A stretch of DNA of 64,000 nt from OCS116 cluster bacterium AG-390-A19 (GCA_003278145.1 QCGV01000002.1:154124-218123); one strand, 5' to 3'. Shown: positions 17,953 through 36,954, counted from the stretch's first letter. Translations and numbers: made by a program. Notes: a model not told the origin generated them from the sequence alone.

Positions 17953-18094
17953 CATAATCAAGTTTATTAATATAATTAACAAAAAAATGAAATTGATTTT
18001 CAATTTTAATGAGAAAGTTCTTGCAGATTATTATATTAACAAGTGATTATGTAGCTGATTCGCAATTTTAATAATTTTGTTAGATAGGTAACAA

Positions 18095-22889: not shown

Positions 22890-23546
22890 TCATTTAAAAC
22901 AATATCCATCTTCTGAACTTTCAATAGATAAAATGTCTTTAAATGGAATAATTTTTTTTCGAATAGTATATATATGTGTTGTTAATGTTTTTGTTTCGAT
23001 ATTTTTTTTATAGCCCCAAACTTTATTTAATAAATAGTCATGAGTTATTGTACTGCCTTTAGCATCGATTAAATGCCAAAGAATTTTAGCCTCTTTATCC
23101 GTAAGTCTTACTGTTTTATCCAAGCCTTTTATAATCCTGGCGTTCATATCTAAATTTAATTTTTTAAATTTTAAGTTAGAGTATTCAATTATATCCCTTT
23201 GAAGAACTATATTTTCAATAATTTTTAATAATTCAATAAAATTAAATGGAGTATCAAAAAATATAAAAGAATTTTTTTCCAGAGTTGAAACTTCTTCGAA
23301 AGATCCAAAAATAATTGCAGGAAAAGAATAAGATCTTTCAGATAAAAACTTTTTAATTTTTGGAATTTCGTTTTGTTCCATTGAATAAGATAAAACAATA
23401 TCATCTTTTTCAAACTGTTGAGCCTTTGTAATATTTGTTATTTTTTTAAAAACAGTTAAATCATATTCTTGTAAGGAAGAAAATTGTTCCTCAATAATTG
23501 AATTAAAAAATTCATCATCAGAAAATAGGAAGGCTTTAATTGTCAA
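22890..23546 (-). CDS. OmpR/PhoB-type winged-helix transcriptional regulator with a degenerate (aspartate-less) receiver domain
   Basis: C-terminal trans_reg_C pattern (LTDKEAKILWHLIDAKGSTITHDYLLNKVWGY...LTTHIYTIRKKI). The N-terminal ~120 aa lack the acidic pocket and phospho-acceptor Asp. Confidence 0.6.
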   Translation of the reverse strand: MTIKAFLFSDDEFFNSIIEEQFSSLQEYDLTVFKKITNITKAQQFEKDDIVLSYSMEQNEIPKIKKFLSERSYSFPAIIFGSFEEVSTLEKNSFIFFDTPFNFIELLKIIENIVLQRDIIEYSNLKFKKLNLDMNARIIKGLDKTVRLTDKEAKILWHLIDAKGSTITHDYLLNKVWGYKKNIETKTLTTHIYTIRKKIIPFKDILSIESSEDGYCFK

Positions 23547-24819: not shown

Positions 24820-27387
24820 ATGTCTGAATATCGTCCAGATAAAATAGAATCATATTGGCAAAATATTTGGTCTGAAAAAGATTCCTTTAAGCCAAGACCT
24901 GTTTCTGAAAATAAACCAAAAAAATATATTTTAGAAATGTTTCCATATCCATCAGGAAATATTCATATGGGACATGTTAGGAATTATACAATTGGCGATG
25001 TTGTTGCGCGCTACAGAAAAGCTCAAGGTGATAATGTGCTTCACCCAATGGGCTGGGACGCCTTTGGGATGCCTGCAGAAAATGCGGCAATGGAGAAAAA
25101 AATACACCCCAAAGAGTGGACATATAAAAATATTGATAATATGAAATCTCAACTGAAATCACTCGGGCTCTCAATTGATTGGAGCAGAGAGCTAGCCACT
25201 TGTGATCCAGAGTATTTTAGACATCAACAGAAGATCTTTTTAGATTTTTATAAAGCTGGCATCGCTTACCGAAAAGAAAGTGAAGTTAATTGGGATCCTA
25301 TAGATAAAACTGTATTAGCTAATGAACAAGTCATAGATGGTAAAGGTTGGAGATCAGGGGCTATTGTTGAAAGAAAAGTTCTAACTCAATGGTTTTTAAA
25401 AATTTCAAACGATTCACAACGATTGCTCAACGAAATAGGAAAACTTGAAAATTGGCCAGATAAAGTTAAAACAATGCAACAAAATTGGATAGGAAAATCT
25501 ACCGGCGTTTCTTTTGAATTCGAATGTATTGACTTGGATAAAAAAACTTGTGATCCGATTAAAGTCTTCACAACTAGGCCAGATACATTATTTGGTGCAA
25601 CATTTTGTGGTATCTCAATTGATCATCCAATAGTCAAAACGCTTGAGGAAGATAACGAAATAAAAGAATTTATTAAAGAATGTAAAAAAATTGGTACGAC
25701 TGAAGAGGCAATAGAAAAAGCTGAAAAAAAGGGGATTAAAACTGGTTTTAAGATCAAACACCCTTTTATAAAAAATAAACTTCTTGATGTATATATTGCA
25801 AATTTTATCCTGAGTGAATATGGAACCGGTGCAATCTTTGGTTGCCCAGCACACGATCAAAGAGATTTTGATTTTGCAAAAAAATATGAAATTGACATTA
25901 TACCTGTTGTAAGTGCAGAAGGTACAGAAACAGAGTTAGGCCAAGACCTCACTGAGGCCTACACAGCAGAAGGAAGGTTAATTAACTCTGACTTCTTAAA
26001 TGGTCTAAGCATTGATGAAGCAAAAAATAAAGCAATAGAAAAACTAGTCGAGAGCAATAAAGGAAAAAAAGAAACAAATTTTAGACTTCGTGACTGGGGA
26101 ATTTCTAGACAAAGATATTGGGGGTGCCCAATTCCAATTTTATACAGAGAAGATGGGGAGATAATTCCAGTACCAGAAGATGAATTGCCTATAACTCTTC
26201 CTGAGGATATTGATTTAACTATTCCTGGAAATCCATTAGAAAGACATCCCACCTGGAAATATACAAAATGCAAAGAGACAGGATTAAAAGCAGTAAGAGA
26301 AACTGATACTCTTGATACTTTCGTAGACTCATCATGGTACTTTGCAAGGTTTTGTGACCTAGATAAGGAAAAACCACTTAATATTTCGGCTACTGATTAT
26401 TGGCTACCAGTTGATCAATATATAGGCGGTGTAGAGCATGCTATTCTTCATTTACTATATTCAAGATTCTTTACAAATGCTCTTAAAGATACAGGCCACC
26501 TAAATATTAGCGAACCTTTTAATGGAATGTTTACTCAAGGTATGGTCTGTCATGAAACCTACCAAAATAATAACGGTGAATGGATTGAGCCTAGTTTAAT
26601 TACAGTAAAAAATTCTGAAATTATTCATAAAGAGACAGGAGAGACTCTTAGAAAGGGCCCCTCTGAGAAAATGTCTAAATCTAAAAAAAATGTTGTAGAT
26701 CCATCAATAATAATAAAAAAATTTGGTGCCGATACTGCAAGATGGTTTGTATTATCGGATTCACCTCCTGAAAGAGATATTTTTTGGTCTGAGTCAGGAG
26801 TTGAAGCTGCTGGTAAATTTATAAGAAAAATATGGAATACAATCAATCAACTAAATGCGCTGGCTAAAGGTAAGACTAAAAACGAAAATAAAGAAAAGAC
26901 TGCTAACTTAAGAAAGATAACACACAAAACTCTTTATAAGATTACTAGAGATTTAGACAATCTTAGTTTTAATAAAGTAATAGCAAGTCTGTACGAATTT
27001 ATAGGAGATATTTCTAAAATTAACGAAAGCGATAATATTAGTTCTGAGGCATTAGATGAAGCATTATCTTTTCTTTTAGTAATGTTGGGACCAATAACCC
27101 CTCATCTAGCTGAAGAGGGCTGGTCTCTTTTAAGCGAGAAAGAAGGTTTGCTTTGCGAACAAACGTGGCCATGTACTGACGAAAATCTAATCACTGAAAC
27201 TAATATAAAATTACCAATACAAATCAACGGTAAAAAGAAAGCAGAGATTGAAGTAGAAAAAAATATTGATGAAGATAGACTAAAAGAACTAATCTTAAAC
27301 GAAGTAAGTATAAAATCATTTATTGAAGACAAAGAAATTAAAAAGCTTATAATCGTTCCTAATAGGATTATTAATATTGTTGTTTAA
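24820..27387 (+). CDS. leuS: leucine--tRNA ligase
   Basis: HMGH (HIGH) and KMSKS motifs, editing domain, 855 aa. Confidence 0.95.
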
Positions 27388-27862
27388 AAAAAAAATTTTA
27401 TTTATATTTTTTATAGGTGTATTTTCTTCGGCTTGCACATTTGAACCCCTTTATTCTGAAAAATTTCTTGCGGAATATAAAATAATTGAACCTTCAAAAA
27501 CCAATAAAGAATTACATGAAATATATAGAAATCTTAATAAGTTAATTTCTTCAAACTCGAAAAGTGAAAATCTTTTTACAGTGGAGCTTGCATCACAAAA
27601 TAGATTTGACGATATTGATGTAAGAGAAGATGAAAAAGTAACCAGGATGGGTGTTTCGACCACTGTAATATTTAAAATACGTAAGATAAACTCAGATAAA
27701 GTTATATTTACAAGCCAAAGTATCGGATCAAATGCATTTAATAGAATTGCTGAGCCTTATTCAAATGAAGTTGCCAAAAATGATGCTATTTCAAAACTCT
27801 CAACATCAATTGCATATGATATAAGAAATCAGCTTGCTCTATACTCAAAAAAAATTAAATAA
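27377..27862 (+). CDS. lptE: LPS-assembly lipoprotein LptE (RlpB)
   Basis: Lipobox FSSAC; conserved leuS-lptE-holA gene order; ~160 aa. Confidence 0.6.
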
Positions 27863-28885: not shown

Positions 28886-29752
28886 TTAATTTAGCTTATT
28901 GATAATAAAGTTTAATTGATCATATGATGAGTACTTGATTTTAAGCTCACCTTTCTCACCTTTGCCTTCCACTATTTGAGCAGAAAGCCCCAAATTATCG
29001 GTTAATTTCTTTTCTAACAATAAAGTATCTGATGACTTTTTATTTCTATCGTTTTGTTTAAGCTTGCTATCTTTCTTAAGATAAGAAACATAAGACTCTA
29101 GCTGTCTCACGCTCATCTTCTTCTTAATTGCAAATTTTGCAACTGGTAGTGGATCAGCTAATACAATTAAAGCCCTGGCATGGCCAGGTGATAAATCTCC
29201 ATTCTGAACAAATTCTTGAACCTTGTGAGGAAGGGACAAAAGTCTTAATGCGTTAGCGACATAGGCGCGTGACTTACTAAGTGTCTTTGATAAGCTCTCT
29301 TGTGTATATTTATGTTCTCTCTGCAATTTTTCAAAACCCAAAGCCTCCTCTATTGCATTAAGGTTTTCTCTCTGCATGTTTTCTATCAAACCGATTTCTA
29401 AAACCTCGCCTTCATTAAAACTCTTAACTATAACTGGAACCTCATTCAATCCAGCCTTTTGAGCAGCCCTCCACCTTCTTTCGCCCGCAATTATTTGAAA
29501 CTTTTTATCATCTAATGACCTGGCCAAAATAGGTAATAAAATTCCCTTTTGTTTTATTGATTGAGAAAGCTCATTAAGAGAGGCCTCACTAAAATTTTTC
29601 CTTGGCTGATCTCTGTTTGGAACTAGAAACTCTATCGGCATATTAACCTGACCCGTCTGAATATCCTTTTTAATTACCTCATCTTGAATATCAGCCTTAT
29701 CATCTAAATCACCTATTAAAGCAGCCAAACCTTTCCCTAAACCTTTTTTCAT
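28886..29752 (-). CDS. parB: chromosome partitioning protein ParB
   Basis: GLGKGLAALI, IIAGERRWRAA ParB box, HTH. Confidence 0.9.
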   Translation of the reverse strand: MKKGLGKGLAALIGDLDDKADIQDEVIKKDIQTGQVNMPIEFLVPNRDQPRKNFSEASLNELSQSIKQKGILLPILARSLDDKKFQIIAGERRWRAAQKAGLNEVPVIVKSFNEGEVLEIGLIENMQRENLNAIEEALGFEKLQREHKYTQESLSKTLSKSRAYVANALRLLSLPHKVQEFVQNGDLSPGHARALIVLADPLPVAKFAIKKKMSVRQLESYVSYLKKDSKLKQNDRNKKSSDTLLLEKKLTDNLGLSAQIVEGKGEKGELKIKYSSYDQLNFIINKLN

Positions 29753-29771
29753 ATTTTTTCCTATCTTAGAA

Positions 29772-30560
29772 TTATGTTATTTCCCAATTTACTCTCTTTA
29801 AAAACTCTCTTGCTAAATTTATATACGCTTCACTTCCTAAACATTTATGATCGTAAATCAACGCAGGTACTCCGTGAGAAGGTGCTTCAGATAGTCTAAT
29901 ATTTCTTGGTATCTTTGTTGTAAAAACTCTATCACCTAGATAAGCCCTAACATCCTCCTCAACCTGAAGAGATAAATTATTTCTTTTATCGAACATTGTT
30001 AAAATAACGCCTGATAATTTAAGTTTTTCATTAATTGTTGAACTAATGCCATCAATAGTTTTTAAAAGCTGGCTTAAACCCTCAAGAGCATAAAACTCTG
30101 CCTGAAGAGGAACAATTGCTCCATCAGAGGCAGCAAGAGCGTTCAAAGTTATTATATTAAGAGCCGGAGGACAATCTAATAAAATAAAATCATAGTCTTT
30201 TTGGTCAGAAAAAGTATTGTTAAGACTTTCTCTTAGCTTAACAGCCCTATCTTCATCTGATGATAGTTCGATTTCGACCCCTAAAAGGTTTTCATTTGCA
30301 GTTACTATATCTAAATTTGGTATTTCAGAATTGATTATGCATTCATTTAATTTTTTTCTTGAGGATAAAATATCATAAACACCAACACTTCTATTTGCTG
30401 GTGATACGCCAAGACCAGTAGATAGGTTTCCCTGAGGGTCCATATCAATTAACAAAACTTTTGCATCACAAGCAGCCATTGCTGTGCCTAGATTTACAGT
30501 AGTGGTTGTTTTGCCAACGCCACCCTTCTGGTTAATTACTGAAAATATTTTTCTACTCAT
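29772..30560 (-). CDS. parA: chromosome partitioning ATPase ParA (Soj)
   Basis: Deviant Walker A KGGVGKTTT. Confidence 0.9.
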   Translation of the reverse strand: MSRKIFSVINQKGGVGKTTTTVNLGTAMAACDAKVLLIDMDPQGNLSTGLGVSPANRSVGVYDILSSRKKLNECIINSEIPNLDIVTANENLLGVEIELSSDEDRAVKLRESLNNTFSDQKDYDFILLDCPPALNIITLNALAASDGAIVPLQAEFYALEGLSQLLKTIDGISSTINEKLKLSGVILTMFDKRNNLSLQVEEDVRAYLGDRVFTTKIPRNIRLSEAPSHGVPALIYDHKCLGSEAYINLAREFLKRVNWEIT

Positions 30561-33035: not shown

Positions 33036-33124
33036 TATTATTTAATAAAACTTTAATAGTTTCTTATCAAGAAGTATTATTTTTATTATTTAGTAAAATT
33101 TAAATATGTTTCACGTGAAACAAT

Positions 33125-34425: not shown

Positions 34426-35691
34426 TTAGGTGTTCATTGAATCATAAAATTCATCGTTAGATTTTGTCTGACTTAGTTTGTCTAGTAAAAACTCAATAGC
34501 ATCAATTGTGCCCATTGGGTCCAAAATTCTTCTTAAAACATATATTTTATGGAGCTTTTCTTTATCCAACAAAAGTTCTTCTTTACGTGTCCCAGATTTC
34601 ATAATATCAATGGCAGGAAAGACTCTTTTATCAGCCATTTTCCTATCAAGAACAACCTCTGAATTACCGGTTCCTTTAAATTCTTCAAAAATAACTTCAT
34701 CCATTCTACTACCAGTATCAATTAATGCTGTTGATATTATAGTTAAAGATCCACCTTCCTCAATATTTCTAGCAGCACCAAAAAATCTTTTTGGTCTTTG
34801 AAGTGCATTTGCATCAACACCACCTGTTAAAACTTTACCAGAAGATGGGACAACTGTATTAAATGCTCGACCTAAACGTGTTATTGAATCGAGTAATATA
34901 ACTACATCACGACCATGTTCAACAAGCCTCTTGGCCTTCTCCATAACCATTTCTGAAACTGCAACGTGTCTAGTGGCAGGCTCATCAAAAGTTGATGATA
35001 CAACCTCTCCATTAACAGTTCTTTGCATATCAGTAACTTCTTCTGGTCTTTCATCAATTAGTAGAACTATTAAATAACATTCCGGCTGATTTTTTGTTAT
35101 CGAATTGGCAATATTTTGAAGGAGAACTGTTTTTCCTGTTCTTGGTGGGGATACAATCATTGCTCTTTGACCTTTTCCTAAGGGAGCTACAATATCAATA
35201 ATTCTGTCGGATAAATCTTTTTTATCAACATCTAATATTTCCATCGTAAGGGCTTCATCAGGATATAAAGGGGTTAAATTATCAAAATGAACTTTTGTTC
35301 TCATATTTTTTGGATCTTCAAAGTTTATTAAATTCACCTTTACTAAAGCAAAATATCTTTCCCCTTCTTTAGGACCTCTTATATAGCCTTCTACAGTGTC
35401 ACCAGTTCTTAAAGAGAATTTTCTAATTTGTGATGGGCTTATGTATATATCATCAGGGCCTGGTAAATAATTAGCATCTGAAGATCTTAAAAAACCGAAA
35501 CCATCTTGAAGTACTTCAATTACTCCCTGTCCTAAAATTTCAATATCTTGATCTGCTAAGTTCTGAAGAATAGCAAAATATAATTCTTGTTTTCTTAAAG
35601 AACTTGCGTTTTCAACACCATTTTCTTTAGCGAATTCAATTAATTCAGATGCTGATTTTTCTTTAAGGTCTTGTAGCTTTAATTCTTTCAT
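34426..35691 (-). CDS. rho: transcription termination factor Rho
   Basis: N-terminal RNA-binding OB domain, Walker A, Q/R loops; 421 aa. Confidence 0.95.
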
Positions 35692-35844
35692 AAATATTCC
35701 TATTTTTTAGATTTTAGGATTCTTAGGTAGGATAAGTAATATTATATAATTTAATAATATCTTAGTCAAAAATAAATTATTACAGATTATAAAATTTCTA
35801 ATAATATATATAATATATAGTATTAGTAGTAGTGAACCTAATTA

Positions 35845-35853
35845 TGTGGATTA
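35845..35853 (-). promoter_or_regulatory. DnaA-box-like 9-mer (TGTGGATTA = reverse complement TAATCCACA; 8/9 to TTATCCACA)
   Basis: Direct reading of the sequence within the candidate origin. Confidence 0.4.
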
Positions 35854-35899
35854 AAAAATTATACATAAGTTATTAACAATTAAATAAAATTAAAATTTA

Positions 35900-35915
35900 T
35901 TAACATTTTATTAAC
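35900..35915 (+). promoter_or_regulatory. CtrA-type binding box TTAA-N7-TTAAC (TTAACATTTTATTAAC)
   Basis: Exact match to the Caulobacter CtrA full-site consensus; flanked by additional TTAAC/TTAACA half sites. Confidence 0.45.
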
Positions 35916-36008
35916 ATATTTAATAAAAACAGTAACTTATAAGTGTTAATAATGTTAATAAAAAAAATTTTTTAAGAAATAAACATAAAATCTTTAACAA
36001 TTAAAACT

Positions 36009-36024
36009 GTTAAAATAAATTTAA
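36009..36024 (-). promoter_or_regulatory. CtrA-type binding box, reverse orientation (GTTAAAATAAATTTAA = reverse complement TTAAATTTATTTTAAC)
   Basis: Exact TTAA-N7-TTAAC on the minus strand within the candidate origin. Confidence 0.45.
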
Positions 36025-36108
36025 TAAAGTATGTCTAAATGTATACTTTAGTTTAATTTTAATAAATAATATATAGAACTAACAAGTTACTAACAAGATA
36101 TTACTGCA

Positions 36109-36954
36109 ATGAAAAAAGATATAAAAAAAAATTTAACTTTGCATTTAGTTTCAGATTCAACAGGAGAAACATTAAAGGCTGTTTCAGCTGCAGCAGCTGC
36201 ACAATTTTCTGAAGTCGAGTATCAACAAAAGACCTATCCAATGGTAAGAACTGTCACTCAATTAGAGAGAGTATTTAAAAATATTAAAGATGAAAAAGGA
36301 GTAGTCTTTTGTACTTTGGTTGAAGAAGAAGTAAGAGAAAAATTAGAGAAGTTTTGCAAAAAAGAAAAGATTTTATATTTACCTGTAATGGAAAATATTG
36401 TTAGCGTATTAGAGAAATATACAGGCTTTGAAGCCATAAATAAACCTGGTGGACAGCATGTTTTAAATGATGATTATTTTAAAAGAATCGAGGCAATAAA
36501 TTATACGTTAGAACATGATGATGGTCAGGGCCAAATAAACCTTGAAAGCGCTGATGTTATAATCGTTGGTGTAAGCAGAACATCCAAAACACCTACATGT
36601 ATTTATTTAGCTAACCAAGGTATAAAGGCTGCAAATTATCCTCTTGTTCCTCATGTTGGGATATCAAAAGAACTTGAAGATGTTAAAAATACCCAAGTTG
36701 TTGCTCTTATAACATCTGCACACACTCTTGTTGAAATAAGGAGGAAAAGATCAATTGAACTAGGCTTAGAAAACAAAGATAATGATTATGTTGATATCCA
36801 TAAAGTCGAAGAAGAAATAACTTCAGCAAAAAGAATTTTTGCAAACAAAGGGTGGCCTGTAATTGATATAACAAGAAGATCGGTTGAAGAAACAGCTTCT
36901 GCTATTATGAATATTTTGTCTTTAAAAGAAGAGAAAAATGCCCAAAAAAAATAA
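36109..36954 (+). CDS. pyruvate,phosphate dikinase / PEP synthetase regulatory protein-like kinase/pyrophosphorylase (PDRP, DUF299)
   Basis: LHLVSDSTGETL N-terminus and GVSRTSKTPTCIYLANQGIKAANYPLVP P-loop-like motif. Confidence 0.8.
   Translation: MKKDIKKNLTLHLVSDSTGETLKAVSAAAAAQFSEVEYQQKTYPMVRTVTQLERVFKNIKDEKGVVFCTLVEEEVREKLEKFCKKEKILYLPVMENIVSVLEKYTGFEAINKPGGQHVLNDDYFKRIEAINYTLEHDDGQGQINLESADVIIVGVSRTSKTPTCIYLANQGIKAANYPLVPHVGISKELEDVKNTQVVALITSAHTLVEIRRKRSIELGLENKDNDYVDIHKVEEEITSAKRIFANKGWPVIDITRRSVEETASAIMNILSLKEEKNAQKK

Follow-up and report, generated by a model that had tools for sequence, protein, structure and literature searches.

A predicted chromosomal replication origin of a PS1-clade marine alphaproteobacterium and its conserved array of DnaA-box-like 9-mers

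Locus and unwinding core of the predicted origin

The stretch analysed here (hereafter the window) comprises 64,000 nucleotides (64 kb) from OCS116 cluster bacterium AG-390-A19 (GCA_003278145.1 QCGV01000002.1:154124-218123), and the element in question is the spacer between two diverging genes, rho and a gene of the DUF299 family, at positions 35692-36108 (417 bp, 14% G+C, as compared with ~31% G+C for the whole window). An earlier note on this DNA had proposed that the spacer contains a replication origin silenced by CtrA, as in Caulobacter, based on two exact matches to the CtrA consensus TTAA-N7-TTAAC and on several TTAACA half-sites. From the homology of position and the architecture of the motifs, it is very probable that the rho-DUF299 spacer serves as the chromosomal replication origin in a marine alphaproteobacterium of the PS1 clade (Hyphomicrobiales-like). 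The repeat unit, overlooked in the earlier note, is the 9-mer TTATTAACA rather than the TTAACA hexamer, and the most likely reading of these 9-mers, albeit one that we hold at somewhat less than even confidence, is that they form an array derived from DnaA boxes.

The minus-strand side of the spacer carries parB, parA, rsmG, mnmG, mnmE and rho, and the plus-strand side carries DUF299/ppsR, maf, aroE, coaE and dnaQ. The origins of Caulobacter and Rickettsia are associated with a conserved gene cluster, in which hemE and the DUF299/COG1806 gene form the boundaries (PMC1914354). The loci of Henriciella and Chenggangzhangella compared in this study (L020 and L026) have the order rho-(hemJ)-hemE / spacer / DUF299, whereas in all PS1-type loci hemE and hemJ (UPF0093) are missing at this position, and rho directly abuts the spacer. 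The features that bear on the identification of the origin are:

28886-30560: the ParB and ParA genes
33107-33122, in the mnmG-mnmE spacer: perfect parS palindrome TGTTTCACGTGAAACA (0 mismatches)
34426-35691, minus strand: rho, the left flanking gene (hemE and hemJ do not lie between it and the spacer)
35785-35817: AT-rich stretch (TA repeats) adjoining the trios, a candidate DNA-unwinding element by its position
35818-35832, plus strand: DnaA-trios TAG TAT TAG TAG TAG (3'-GAT-5' type, with the middle A in every trio)
35845-35853, minus strand: DnaA box R, TAATCCACA (1 mismatch to TTATCCACA), 12 bp from the trios
36109-36954, plus strand: DUF299/PpsR-type kinase-phosphorylase (COG1806 gene), the right flanking gene

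The spacer is taken as the origin on the combined evidence of synteny, an invariant DnaA box with DnaA-trios, the AT-rich stretch and the nearby parS, all of which support the earlier placement of the motif cluster inside a candidate origin. The parS palindrome, situated 2.6 kb from the spacer and ~2.5 kb from parA, is the sole match in the window even when up to 3 mismatches are allowed. The GC skew in the window tracks the gene strand, and the skew alone thus does not locate the origin. A sister origin was found on the 1.53-Mb metagenome contig Ga0494230_0007 (JGI 3300046171). A mobile-element or phage origin was rejected, as phage similarity was not found, and an Rfam search of the spacer for a structured RNA returned no match at E up to 1.

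The DUF299 protein shares 88-91% identity with proteins from metagenome-assembled and single-amplified genomes (MAGs and SAGs) labelled as Rhodobiaceae bacterium, uncultured PS1 clade bacterium and Rhizobiales bacterium TMED94, and 59% identity with its counterparts in other PS1 and OCS116 genomes. These relatives speak against an affiliation with SAR11, a group without ctrA (PMC2877005), that the ~31% G+C might suggest. A member of its 90% cluster, GIS05579.1 (166 aa), is annotated as originating from a 'Candidatus Dadabacteria' MAG, which is probably a mis-binned PS1 contig.

The conservation of the spacer was assessed in a comparison set of 24 distinct spacer versions representing five lineages: A (the window, L001 and L002), A' (L222-L230), B (L007), C (L192-L201, the TMED94 type) and D (L212-L217). 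None of the 9 columns of DnaA box R varies among the 24 sequences, and the trios are conserved in the sister lineages as TAG/TTG TAT TTG TAG TAG. In Bacillus subtilis and the majority of bacteria, the basal unwinding system follows a rule that specifies a DnaA box with at most 2 mismatches, a spacer of 0-16 bp and at least 3 NAN trios, (.A.){3,} (PMC8287927). The spacer of the window has all of these components in the correct orientation, namely box R with its single mismatch, a gap of 12 bp (13 bp being the commonest), five NAN trios on the strand whose 3' end faces box R, and an AT-rich flank, and this arrangement is conserved in the sister lineages. The predicted unwinding core differs from the described systems (PMC8287927) in having a single box, a tandem pair being more common. 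A TTATACA element within 35857-35867, 3-5 bp to the right of box R, is present in all lineages and may represent the second, degenerate box of such a pair.

The 9-mer array and its conservation

To the right of the core lie eight related 9-mers (boxes A to G2), which overlap the CtrA-consensus matches as listed below:

35870-35878, plus strand: box A, TTATTAACA
35897-35905, plus strand: box B, TTATTAACA, the left half of site 1
35908-35916, plus strand: box C, TTATTAACA, the right half of site 1, 2 bp after box B
35900-35915, plus strand: CtrA-consensus site 1, TTAACATTTTATTAAC, exact TTAA-N7-TTAAC, the overlap of boxes B and C
35944-35952, minus strand: box D, TTATTAACA, abutting box E
35953-35961, minus strand: box E, TTATTAACA, abutting box D
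35977-35985, plus strand: box F, AAATAAACA (AAATCAACA in lineage D), with a conserved ATNAACA core
36009-36024, minus strand: CtrA-consensus site 2, TTAAATTTATTTTAAC, exact TTAA-N7-TTAAC
36076-36095, plus strand: boxes G1 (GAACTAACA) and G2 (TTACTAACA), 2 bp apart, containing a degenerate 'site 3' (36079-36094)

The two exact 16-mers are thus present where they had been reported. The recurrence of the half-site was also confirmed, with TTAACA or its complement TGTTAA occurring seven times in 141 bp (35873-36013), at 35873, 35900, 35911 and 35994 on the plus strand and at 35944, 35953 and 36008 on the minus strand, even though the coordinates previously given for it were 1-5 nt off, except for 35911. 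This density is ~10 times that of the other intergenic DNA of the window, and the base following TTAAC is A in 7/7 cases in the spacer as compared with 41% elsewhere in the window.

Chance occurrence was evaluated locally, by 5000 dinucleotide-preserving shuffles of the 417-bp spacer itself. The seven copies of TTAACA compare with 1.03 expected (P < 2e-4), and the five copies of TTATTAACA, all within 35870-35961 (starting at 35870, 35897 and 35908 on the plus strand and at 35944 and 35953 on the minus strand), with 0.085 expected (P < 2e-4). The two full sites compare with 0.105 expected (P ~0.01), in agreement with the earlier argument that repeated exact 16-mers are unexpected in ~400 bp. 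Likewise, seven 9-mers of the spacer deviate by at most one mismatch from TTWTNCACA (1.6 expected, P = 0.0013), five of them being TTATTAACA with its mismatch at position 6. Over the whole window the 9-mer occurs 9 times (2.4 expected), but the comparison of the full motif with shuffles, of a kind that had been suggested for the whole genome, revealed no significant enrichment (6 matches vs 2.9 +/- 2.0 expected, a count reached by 10/100 shuffles), and the four matches outside the spacer are all inside genes. On the other hand, the remaining intergenic DNA of the window, 3168 bp in 17 stretches of which several have 13-19% G+C, contains five TTAACA, no TTATTAACA and no full site; the comparable density in other AT-rich intergenic DNA that the earlier note had named as adverse to its proposal was therefore not observed.

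A role of TTAACA as a promoter element (one mismatch from TTGACA) was considered and rejected: promoter-like sites number 4 as compared with 7.0 in shuffles, i.e. below expectation, and the sole strong promoter, that of rho, lies outside the TTAACA cluster.

Across the lineages, 15 of the 72 alignment columns within the boxes are variable as opposed to 100 of 205 in the rest of the spacer (Fisher P = 2.7e-5), which indicates that the boxes are under purifying selection. The pattern of constraint, scored over 8 boxes in 5 lineages (40 cells), is TTATNAACA, with a free position 5 and an ACA tail: there is no variation at positions 7 and 8, A is found in 39/40 cells at position 9 and in 37/40 at position 6, and T, A or C in 30, 7 and 3 cells, respectively, at position 5. 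The best conserved of the boxes is box C, invariant in all 24 sequences, while the 2-bp gap between boxes B and C varies (TT/AT/CT/CC). Box A is TTATTAACA in lineages A and A' and TTATAAACA in B, C and D, a change that breaks TTAA and keeps TTATNAACA. L007 has TTTTTAACA as box B, and lineages C and D have the canonical DnaA box TTTTCCACA in its place. Box D is not conserved in lineages B and C; box E retains ATTAACA in all lineages and reads TTATAAACA in strain L002; box F reads AATAAACA, or AATCAACA in lineage D; and box G2 is TTATTAACA or TTATCAACA throughout the family (TTATCAACA in L031).

The fate of the three CtrA-consensus sites in the lineages is as follows:

Site 1: full consensus in A, A' and B; in C and D the left half is TTTTCCACA
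Site 2: present in A (the window, L001 and L002 only); GTTGG in A'; absent in B, C and D
Site 3: CTAAC..CTAAC in A; CTAAC..TTAAC in A'; full in B (TTAACATGTTATTAAC); full in C and D

In strain L002 site 1 reads TTAACAATTTATTAAC, the change being confined to the N7 spacer. As judged from the compared sequences, site 2, in which 8/16 columns vary across the lineages, is a strain-level accident. None of the five lineages is without a full TTAA-N7-TTAAC at site 1 or site 3.

Two groups of more distant relatives extend this comparison. The origin spacer of the sister family L011-L017 contains several canonical DnaA boxes and no full CtrA match, and in the alignment with L011 box B stands opposite a perfect TTATCCACA and box E opposite TGTGGATAA/TGTGGGTAA (a DnaA box), with the neighbouring TGTTAATAA common to both. 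Relatives with 43-68% G+C in the upstream DNA have clear full CtrA sites in the homologous hemE/DUF299 spacer (chance expectation ~0.005), and in the eight clear sites TTAAC is always followed by C or G.

Candidate binders of the array

Particular interest attaches to the uniform TTATTAACA box, a sequence that comes close to a DnaA box and at the same time contains a CtrA half-site. According to the reading that we rank first, the core (DnaA box R, the 12-bp spacer, five DnaA-trios and the AT-rich stretch) would be accompanied on its right by an array of eight TTATNAACA 9-mers that descend from, and behave like, DnaA boxes (TTATNCACA) with C replaced by A at position 6. They would act as weak DnaA-recognition sites that help to build a DnaA oligomer beside the strong box. 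Site 1 would then represent boxes B and C, placed 2 bp apart, its match to the CtrA consensus following automatically from the 11-bp register of the two 9-mers, and site 2 would owe its existence to a strain-specific G-to-A change. The motifs, their enrichment, the pattern of conservation and the alignment to canonical boxes are observed; from these we infer DnaA as the most likely binder.

This ranking is due to three lines of evidence. First, TTATNAACA differs from TTATNCACA by one change, agrees with it in the free position 5 and the fixed ACA tail, forms tandem pairs 2 bp apart, and occupies the positions of canonical DnaA boxes in relatives, with boxes clustered 16-110 bp from box R and the trios. 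Second, a CtrA half-site needs TTAA, while the conserved boxes A, F and G2 (the latter in L031) lack it. Third, TTAAC is followed by A here but by C or G in the CtrA sites of the relatives, despite the same CtrA recognition helix.

The proposed arrangement has precedents in well-studied origins. In Escherichia coli oriC, low-affinity DnaA 9-mers (the I, tau and C sites) form arrays with 2-bp gaps, and Caulobacter Cori contains the weak W and G boxes. As in those origins, the units of the window are 9-mers that occur in tandem pairs with a 2-bp gap beside one high-affinity box, and are non-consensus yet conserved. In contrast to the heterogeneous weak sites of E. coli, the deviation seen here is uniform (C to A at position 6, with mostly T at position 5); furthermore, the E. 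coli sites keep the CC core, and in the window three boxes point away from the strong box.

Several points weigh against a DnaA-derived array. The C expected at position 6 of a DnaA box is replaced by A in the 37 of 40 box-by-lineage cells mentioned above, so that the 9-mers are not canonical DnaA boxes but at most a variant or weak class. To our knowledge, C stands at this position in every published DnaA-box consensus, which would make TTATNAACA a weak site at best, and a literature search for the 9-mer returned nothing relevant and no documented binding of DnaA to TTATNAACA. Since all the variant boxes share A6 instead of displaying a mix of weak variants, the array looks like the target of a specific AACA recognition. 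Both CC-to-TA conversions yield exactly the CtrA half-site TTAAC, and each of the five lineages has retained the full TTAA-N7-TTAAC at least once. Boxes A to C are oriented opposite to the strong box R. Finally, the alignment with the L011 family joins diverged AT-rich sequences, which motif similarity as such could pull together.

The strongest competitor of the DnaA-derived array, possible although less probable, is the silencing by CtrA originally suggested for this locus. Phosphorylated CtrA dimers would bind 11-bp-phased pairs (site 1 in the window, site 3 in sister species) and single TTAAC half-sites, and would thereby occlude the loading of DnaA beside the core until CtrA is removed. 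The model for such a mechanism is Cori of Caulobacter crescentus, which lies between hemE and DUF299 and contains five CtrA sites along with DnaA boxes and an IHF site. The locus studied here shares with Cori (as well as with the origins of Rickettsia, Wolbachia and Hyphomonas) its chromosomal setting between the DUF299/COG1806 gene and the rho-mnmE-mnmG-rsmG-parAB block, the AT-richness of a spacer that contains DnaA boxes, TTAA-N7-TTAAC matches beside or on DnaA-box positions, and the occurrence of CtrA and ChpT in the wider clade of the organism. It differs from Cori in the absence of hemE and hemJ, as well as in its CtrA-like matches, which shift between sister species and sit in a 9-mer family with a DnaA-like constraint. 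Binding of CtrA to origins has been described in Caulobacter, Rickettsia and Hyphomonas (PMC1914354, PMC7200025). On the other hand, in the studied representatives of Hyphomicrobiales, Sinorhizobium meliloti and Brucella abortus, CtrA is not used at the origin (PMC4433202, PMC2877005).

A tblastn search with Caulobacter CtrA (a query verified to be 100% identical to the database entry) gave no match to ctrA in the 64-kb window, and CckA and ChpT are likewise not encoded in it. When metagenome contigs were scanned with an AT-rich codon version of the CtrA recognition helix, complete ctrA genes were recovered from contigs with 31-35% G+C. Their products are 72-77% identical to Caulobacter CtrA, without a single difference in the DNA-binding region from HLTGKEY through CKLRKKL, and are named as response regulators of Rhodobiaceae, Hyphomicrobiales or Rhizobiales bacterium marine MAGs and SAGs, the same labels as those of the closest relatives of the window. 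These genes are found in single-cell genomes and on contigs of 1.3-1.4 Mb; a gene for a ChpT-type phosphotransferase (PF10090) follows directly. Accession numbers did not link any of them to an assembly in which this origin is present: RPF85597 (PpsR, TMED94) and RPF96051 (CtrA), for instance, are ~10,000 accession numbers apart. In the three lineages of AT-rich marine relatives whose yajQ-ctrA spacers were read (L161-L191), the region upstream of ctrA has no TTAA-N7-TTAA.

As separate observations on these genes, a conserved GTGATTCG with a GANTC site is located ~40-90 bp before the ctrA start codon in the same three lineages, an arrangement reminiscent of the methylation-sensitive P1 promoter of Caulobacter ctrA, and the gene order in the AT-rich marine relatives (L161-L191, L202-L211) is mnmA-yajQ-ctrA-chpT-suhB-eipA.

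The GANTC motif is depleted in the window (125 vs 210 +/- 14 in shuffles, with 100/100 shuffles higher), a pattern characteristic of CcrM-bearing alphaproteobacteria (PMC3973325) and thus consistent with the presence of a cell-cycle circuit. Within the origin spacer there is a single GANTC (35718-35722), in contrast to the clusters in Henriciella origins.

Silencing by CtrA is favored by the two exact consensus matches with their low local probability, by the retention of site 1 in lineages A, A' and B with the change (in L002) confined to its spacer, and by the presence of a full site 1 or site 3 in every lineage, which looks like binding-site turnover. In addition, the CC-to-TA changes by which two ancestral DnaA boxes were altered produce precisely TTAAC, ctrA with the adjacent chpT is present in AT-rich marine MAGs and SAGs with the same taxon labels, and GANTC is depleted in the window. 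The higher-G+C relatives have full sites in the homologous spacer, and their second half-site is often TT[G/A]TTAAC, which makes the conserved TTA prefix of the 9-mers compatible with CtrA. Set against this, site 2 is strain-specific, being GTTGG even in the nearest strain group; lineages C and D have no CtrA site at the position of site 1; the window has a degenerate site 3, in which both TTAA have become CTAA; boxes A, F and G2 (L031) are conserved without TTAA; boxes D and E are spaced by 9 bp and not 11 bp; and the invariant A after TTAAC is at variance with the C or G of the real sites in relatives. Moreover, no full site occurs in the sister family L011-L017, a CtrA box is lacking in the ctrA promoters of the AT-rich lineages, S. 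meliloti and B. abortus do not use CtrA at the origin, and ctrA is neither in the window nor linked to an assembly with this origin. Overall, the non-random and conserved nature of the cluster, the occurrence of CtrA and ChpT in same-labelled genomes and the CtrA sites of relatives uphold a part of the original suggestion, while of its two mainstays site 2 is an accident at the strain level and site 1 is better described as two DnaA-like 9-mers.

Binding of CtrA and weak binding of DnaA to the same 9-mers are not mutually exclusive and could coexist, by analogy with the overlapping CtrA/DnaA sites of Caulobacter Cori. In a further scenario, which we consider unlikely but worth stating, canonical DnaA boxes would have been repeatedly converted (CC to TA) to a hybrid TTATTAACA, at once a one-mismatch DnaA box and a CtrA half-site, such that the initiator and the silencer compete for the same bases and pairs 2 bp apart form full CtrA sites; alternatively, the DnaA of this clade would have shifted its specificity to accept A6.

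It is improbable, in our estimate, that TTATNAACA is read by a different sequence-specific protein, such as an origin-binding regulator or a winged-helix protein recognizing 11-bp direct repeats. The AACA common to all boxes is neither the DnaA consensus (CACA) nor a requirement of CtrA, the terminal A is nearly universal (the 39/40 cells noted above), and the tandem pairs B/C and G1/G2 have an 11-bp period. Moreover, the following candidate gene, at a distance of 12 kb, encodes an OmpR-family DNA-binding domain with no recognisable receiver match:

22890-23546, minus strand: orphan OmpR-type protein of 218 aa with a degenerate receiver domain (winged helix PF00486, E = 1.5e-14), adjoining a YggS-like gene

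The N-terminal half of this protein has no receiver-domain match, and by eye a Ser occupies the position of the phospho-accepting Asp; it is probably an orphan regulator that acts independently of phosphorylation. However, neither this protein nor any other has a link to the origin, and the motif is just one position off a DnaA box and aligned with canonical boxes in relatives, which makes the same binder the simpler explanation.

The weakest alternative, that the repeats have no specific function, having arisen in a spacer of 14% G+C from AT-biased mutation and from local duplications by 9-bp and 11-bp slippage, and that the matches to the consensus are due to chance, could appeal to the extreme AT-richness, to the origin of site 2 in a single strain-specific change, to the lack of significant window-wide enrichment and to the possible origin of the D/E and B/C pairs by tandem duplication, but it is disfavoured, and in our view very improbable, given the local shuffles (P < 2e-4 for both TTAACA and the 9-mer), the absence of the 9-mer and of full sites from other AT-rich spacers, the conservation of the boxes over the surrounding spacer, and box C, which is invariant in 24 distinct sequences while its flanks vary.

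Other features and significance

Two further elements of the spacer stand out in the comparison of lineages:

35741-35769, minus strand: sigma-70-like promoter TTGACT-17-TATAAT directed towards rho (11/12 matches)
36032-36050: 19-nt block TGTCTAAATGTATACTTTA, invariant in all 24 spacers

The TTAGTCAA block of the rho promoter is kept in all lineages. The conservation of TGTCTAAATGTATACTTTA is exceeded only by DnaA box R and box C, and searches for an Rfam family or a convincing promoter match in this block were negative. Elsewhere in the window, the 91-bp spacer before ftsK contains ATATTAACAAGTGATTATG (18030-18065) followed by a GANTC site (GATTC at 18057), and the TATTAACAAG part of this sequence matches the context of box G2 at the origin, which may be due to chance. 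An open reading frame of 161 aa between leuS and holA (27377-27862, plus strand) has no Pfam or NCBIfam match and, by its position, could encode LptE.

Bacteria of the PS1 clade are abundant and almost uncultured alphaproteobacteria of the ocean, and the size of the related contigs (~1.5 Mb) suggests that their genomes are small. The position of the origin provides a reference for growth-rate estimates from metagenome coverage (peak-to-trough ratio), and the DnaA box, the trios and parS mark it precisely. The TTATNAACA array represents a testable case of initiator-site evolution under a strong AT bias. It also bears on the reach of CtrA control of the origin into relatives of Hyphomicrobiales, such control being present in Caulobacter, Rickettsia and Hyphomonas and absent in Sinorhizobium and Brucella. 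Under the ordinary reading alone, the locus adds one more predicted alphaproteobacterial origin; a hybrid 9-mer or a shifted DnaA specificity, if true, would constitute a new way to build an alphaproteobacterial origin under extreme AT pressure.

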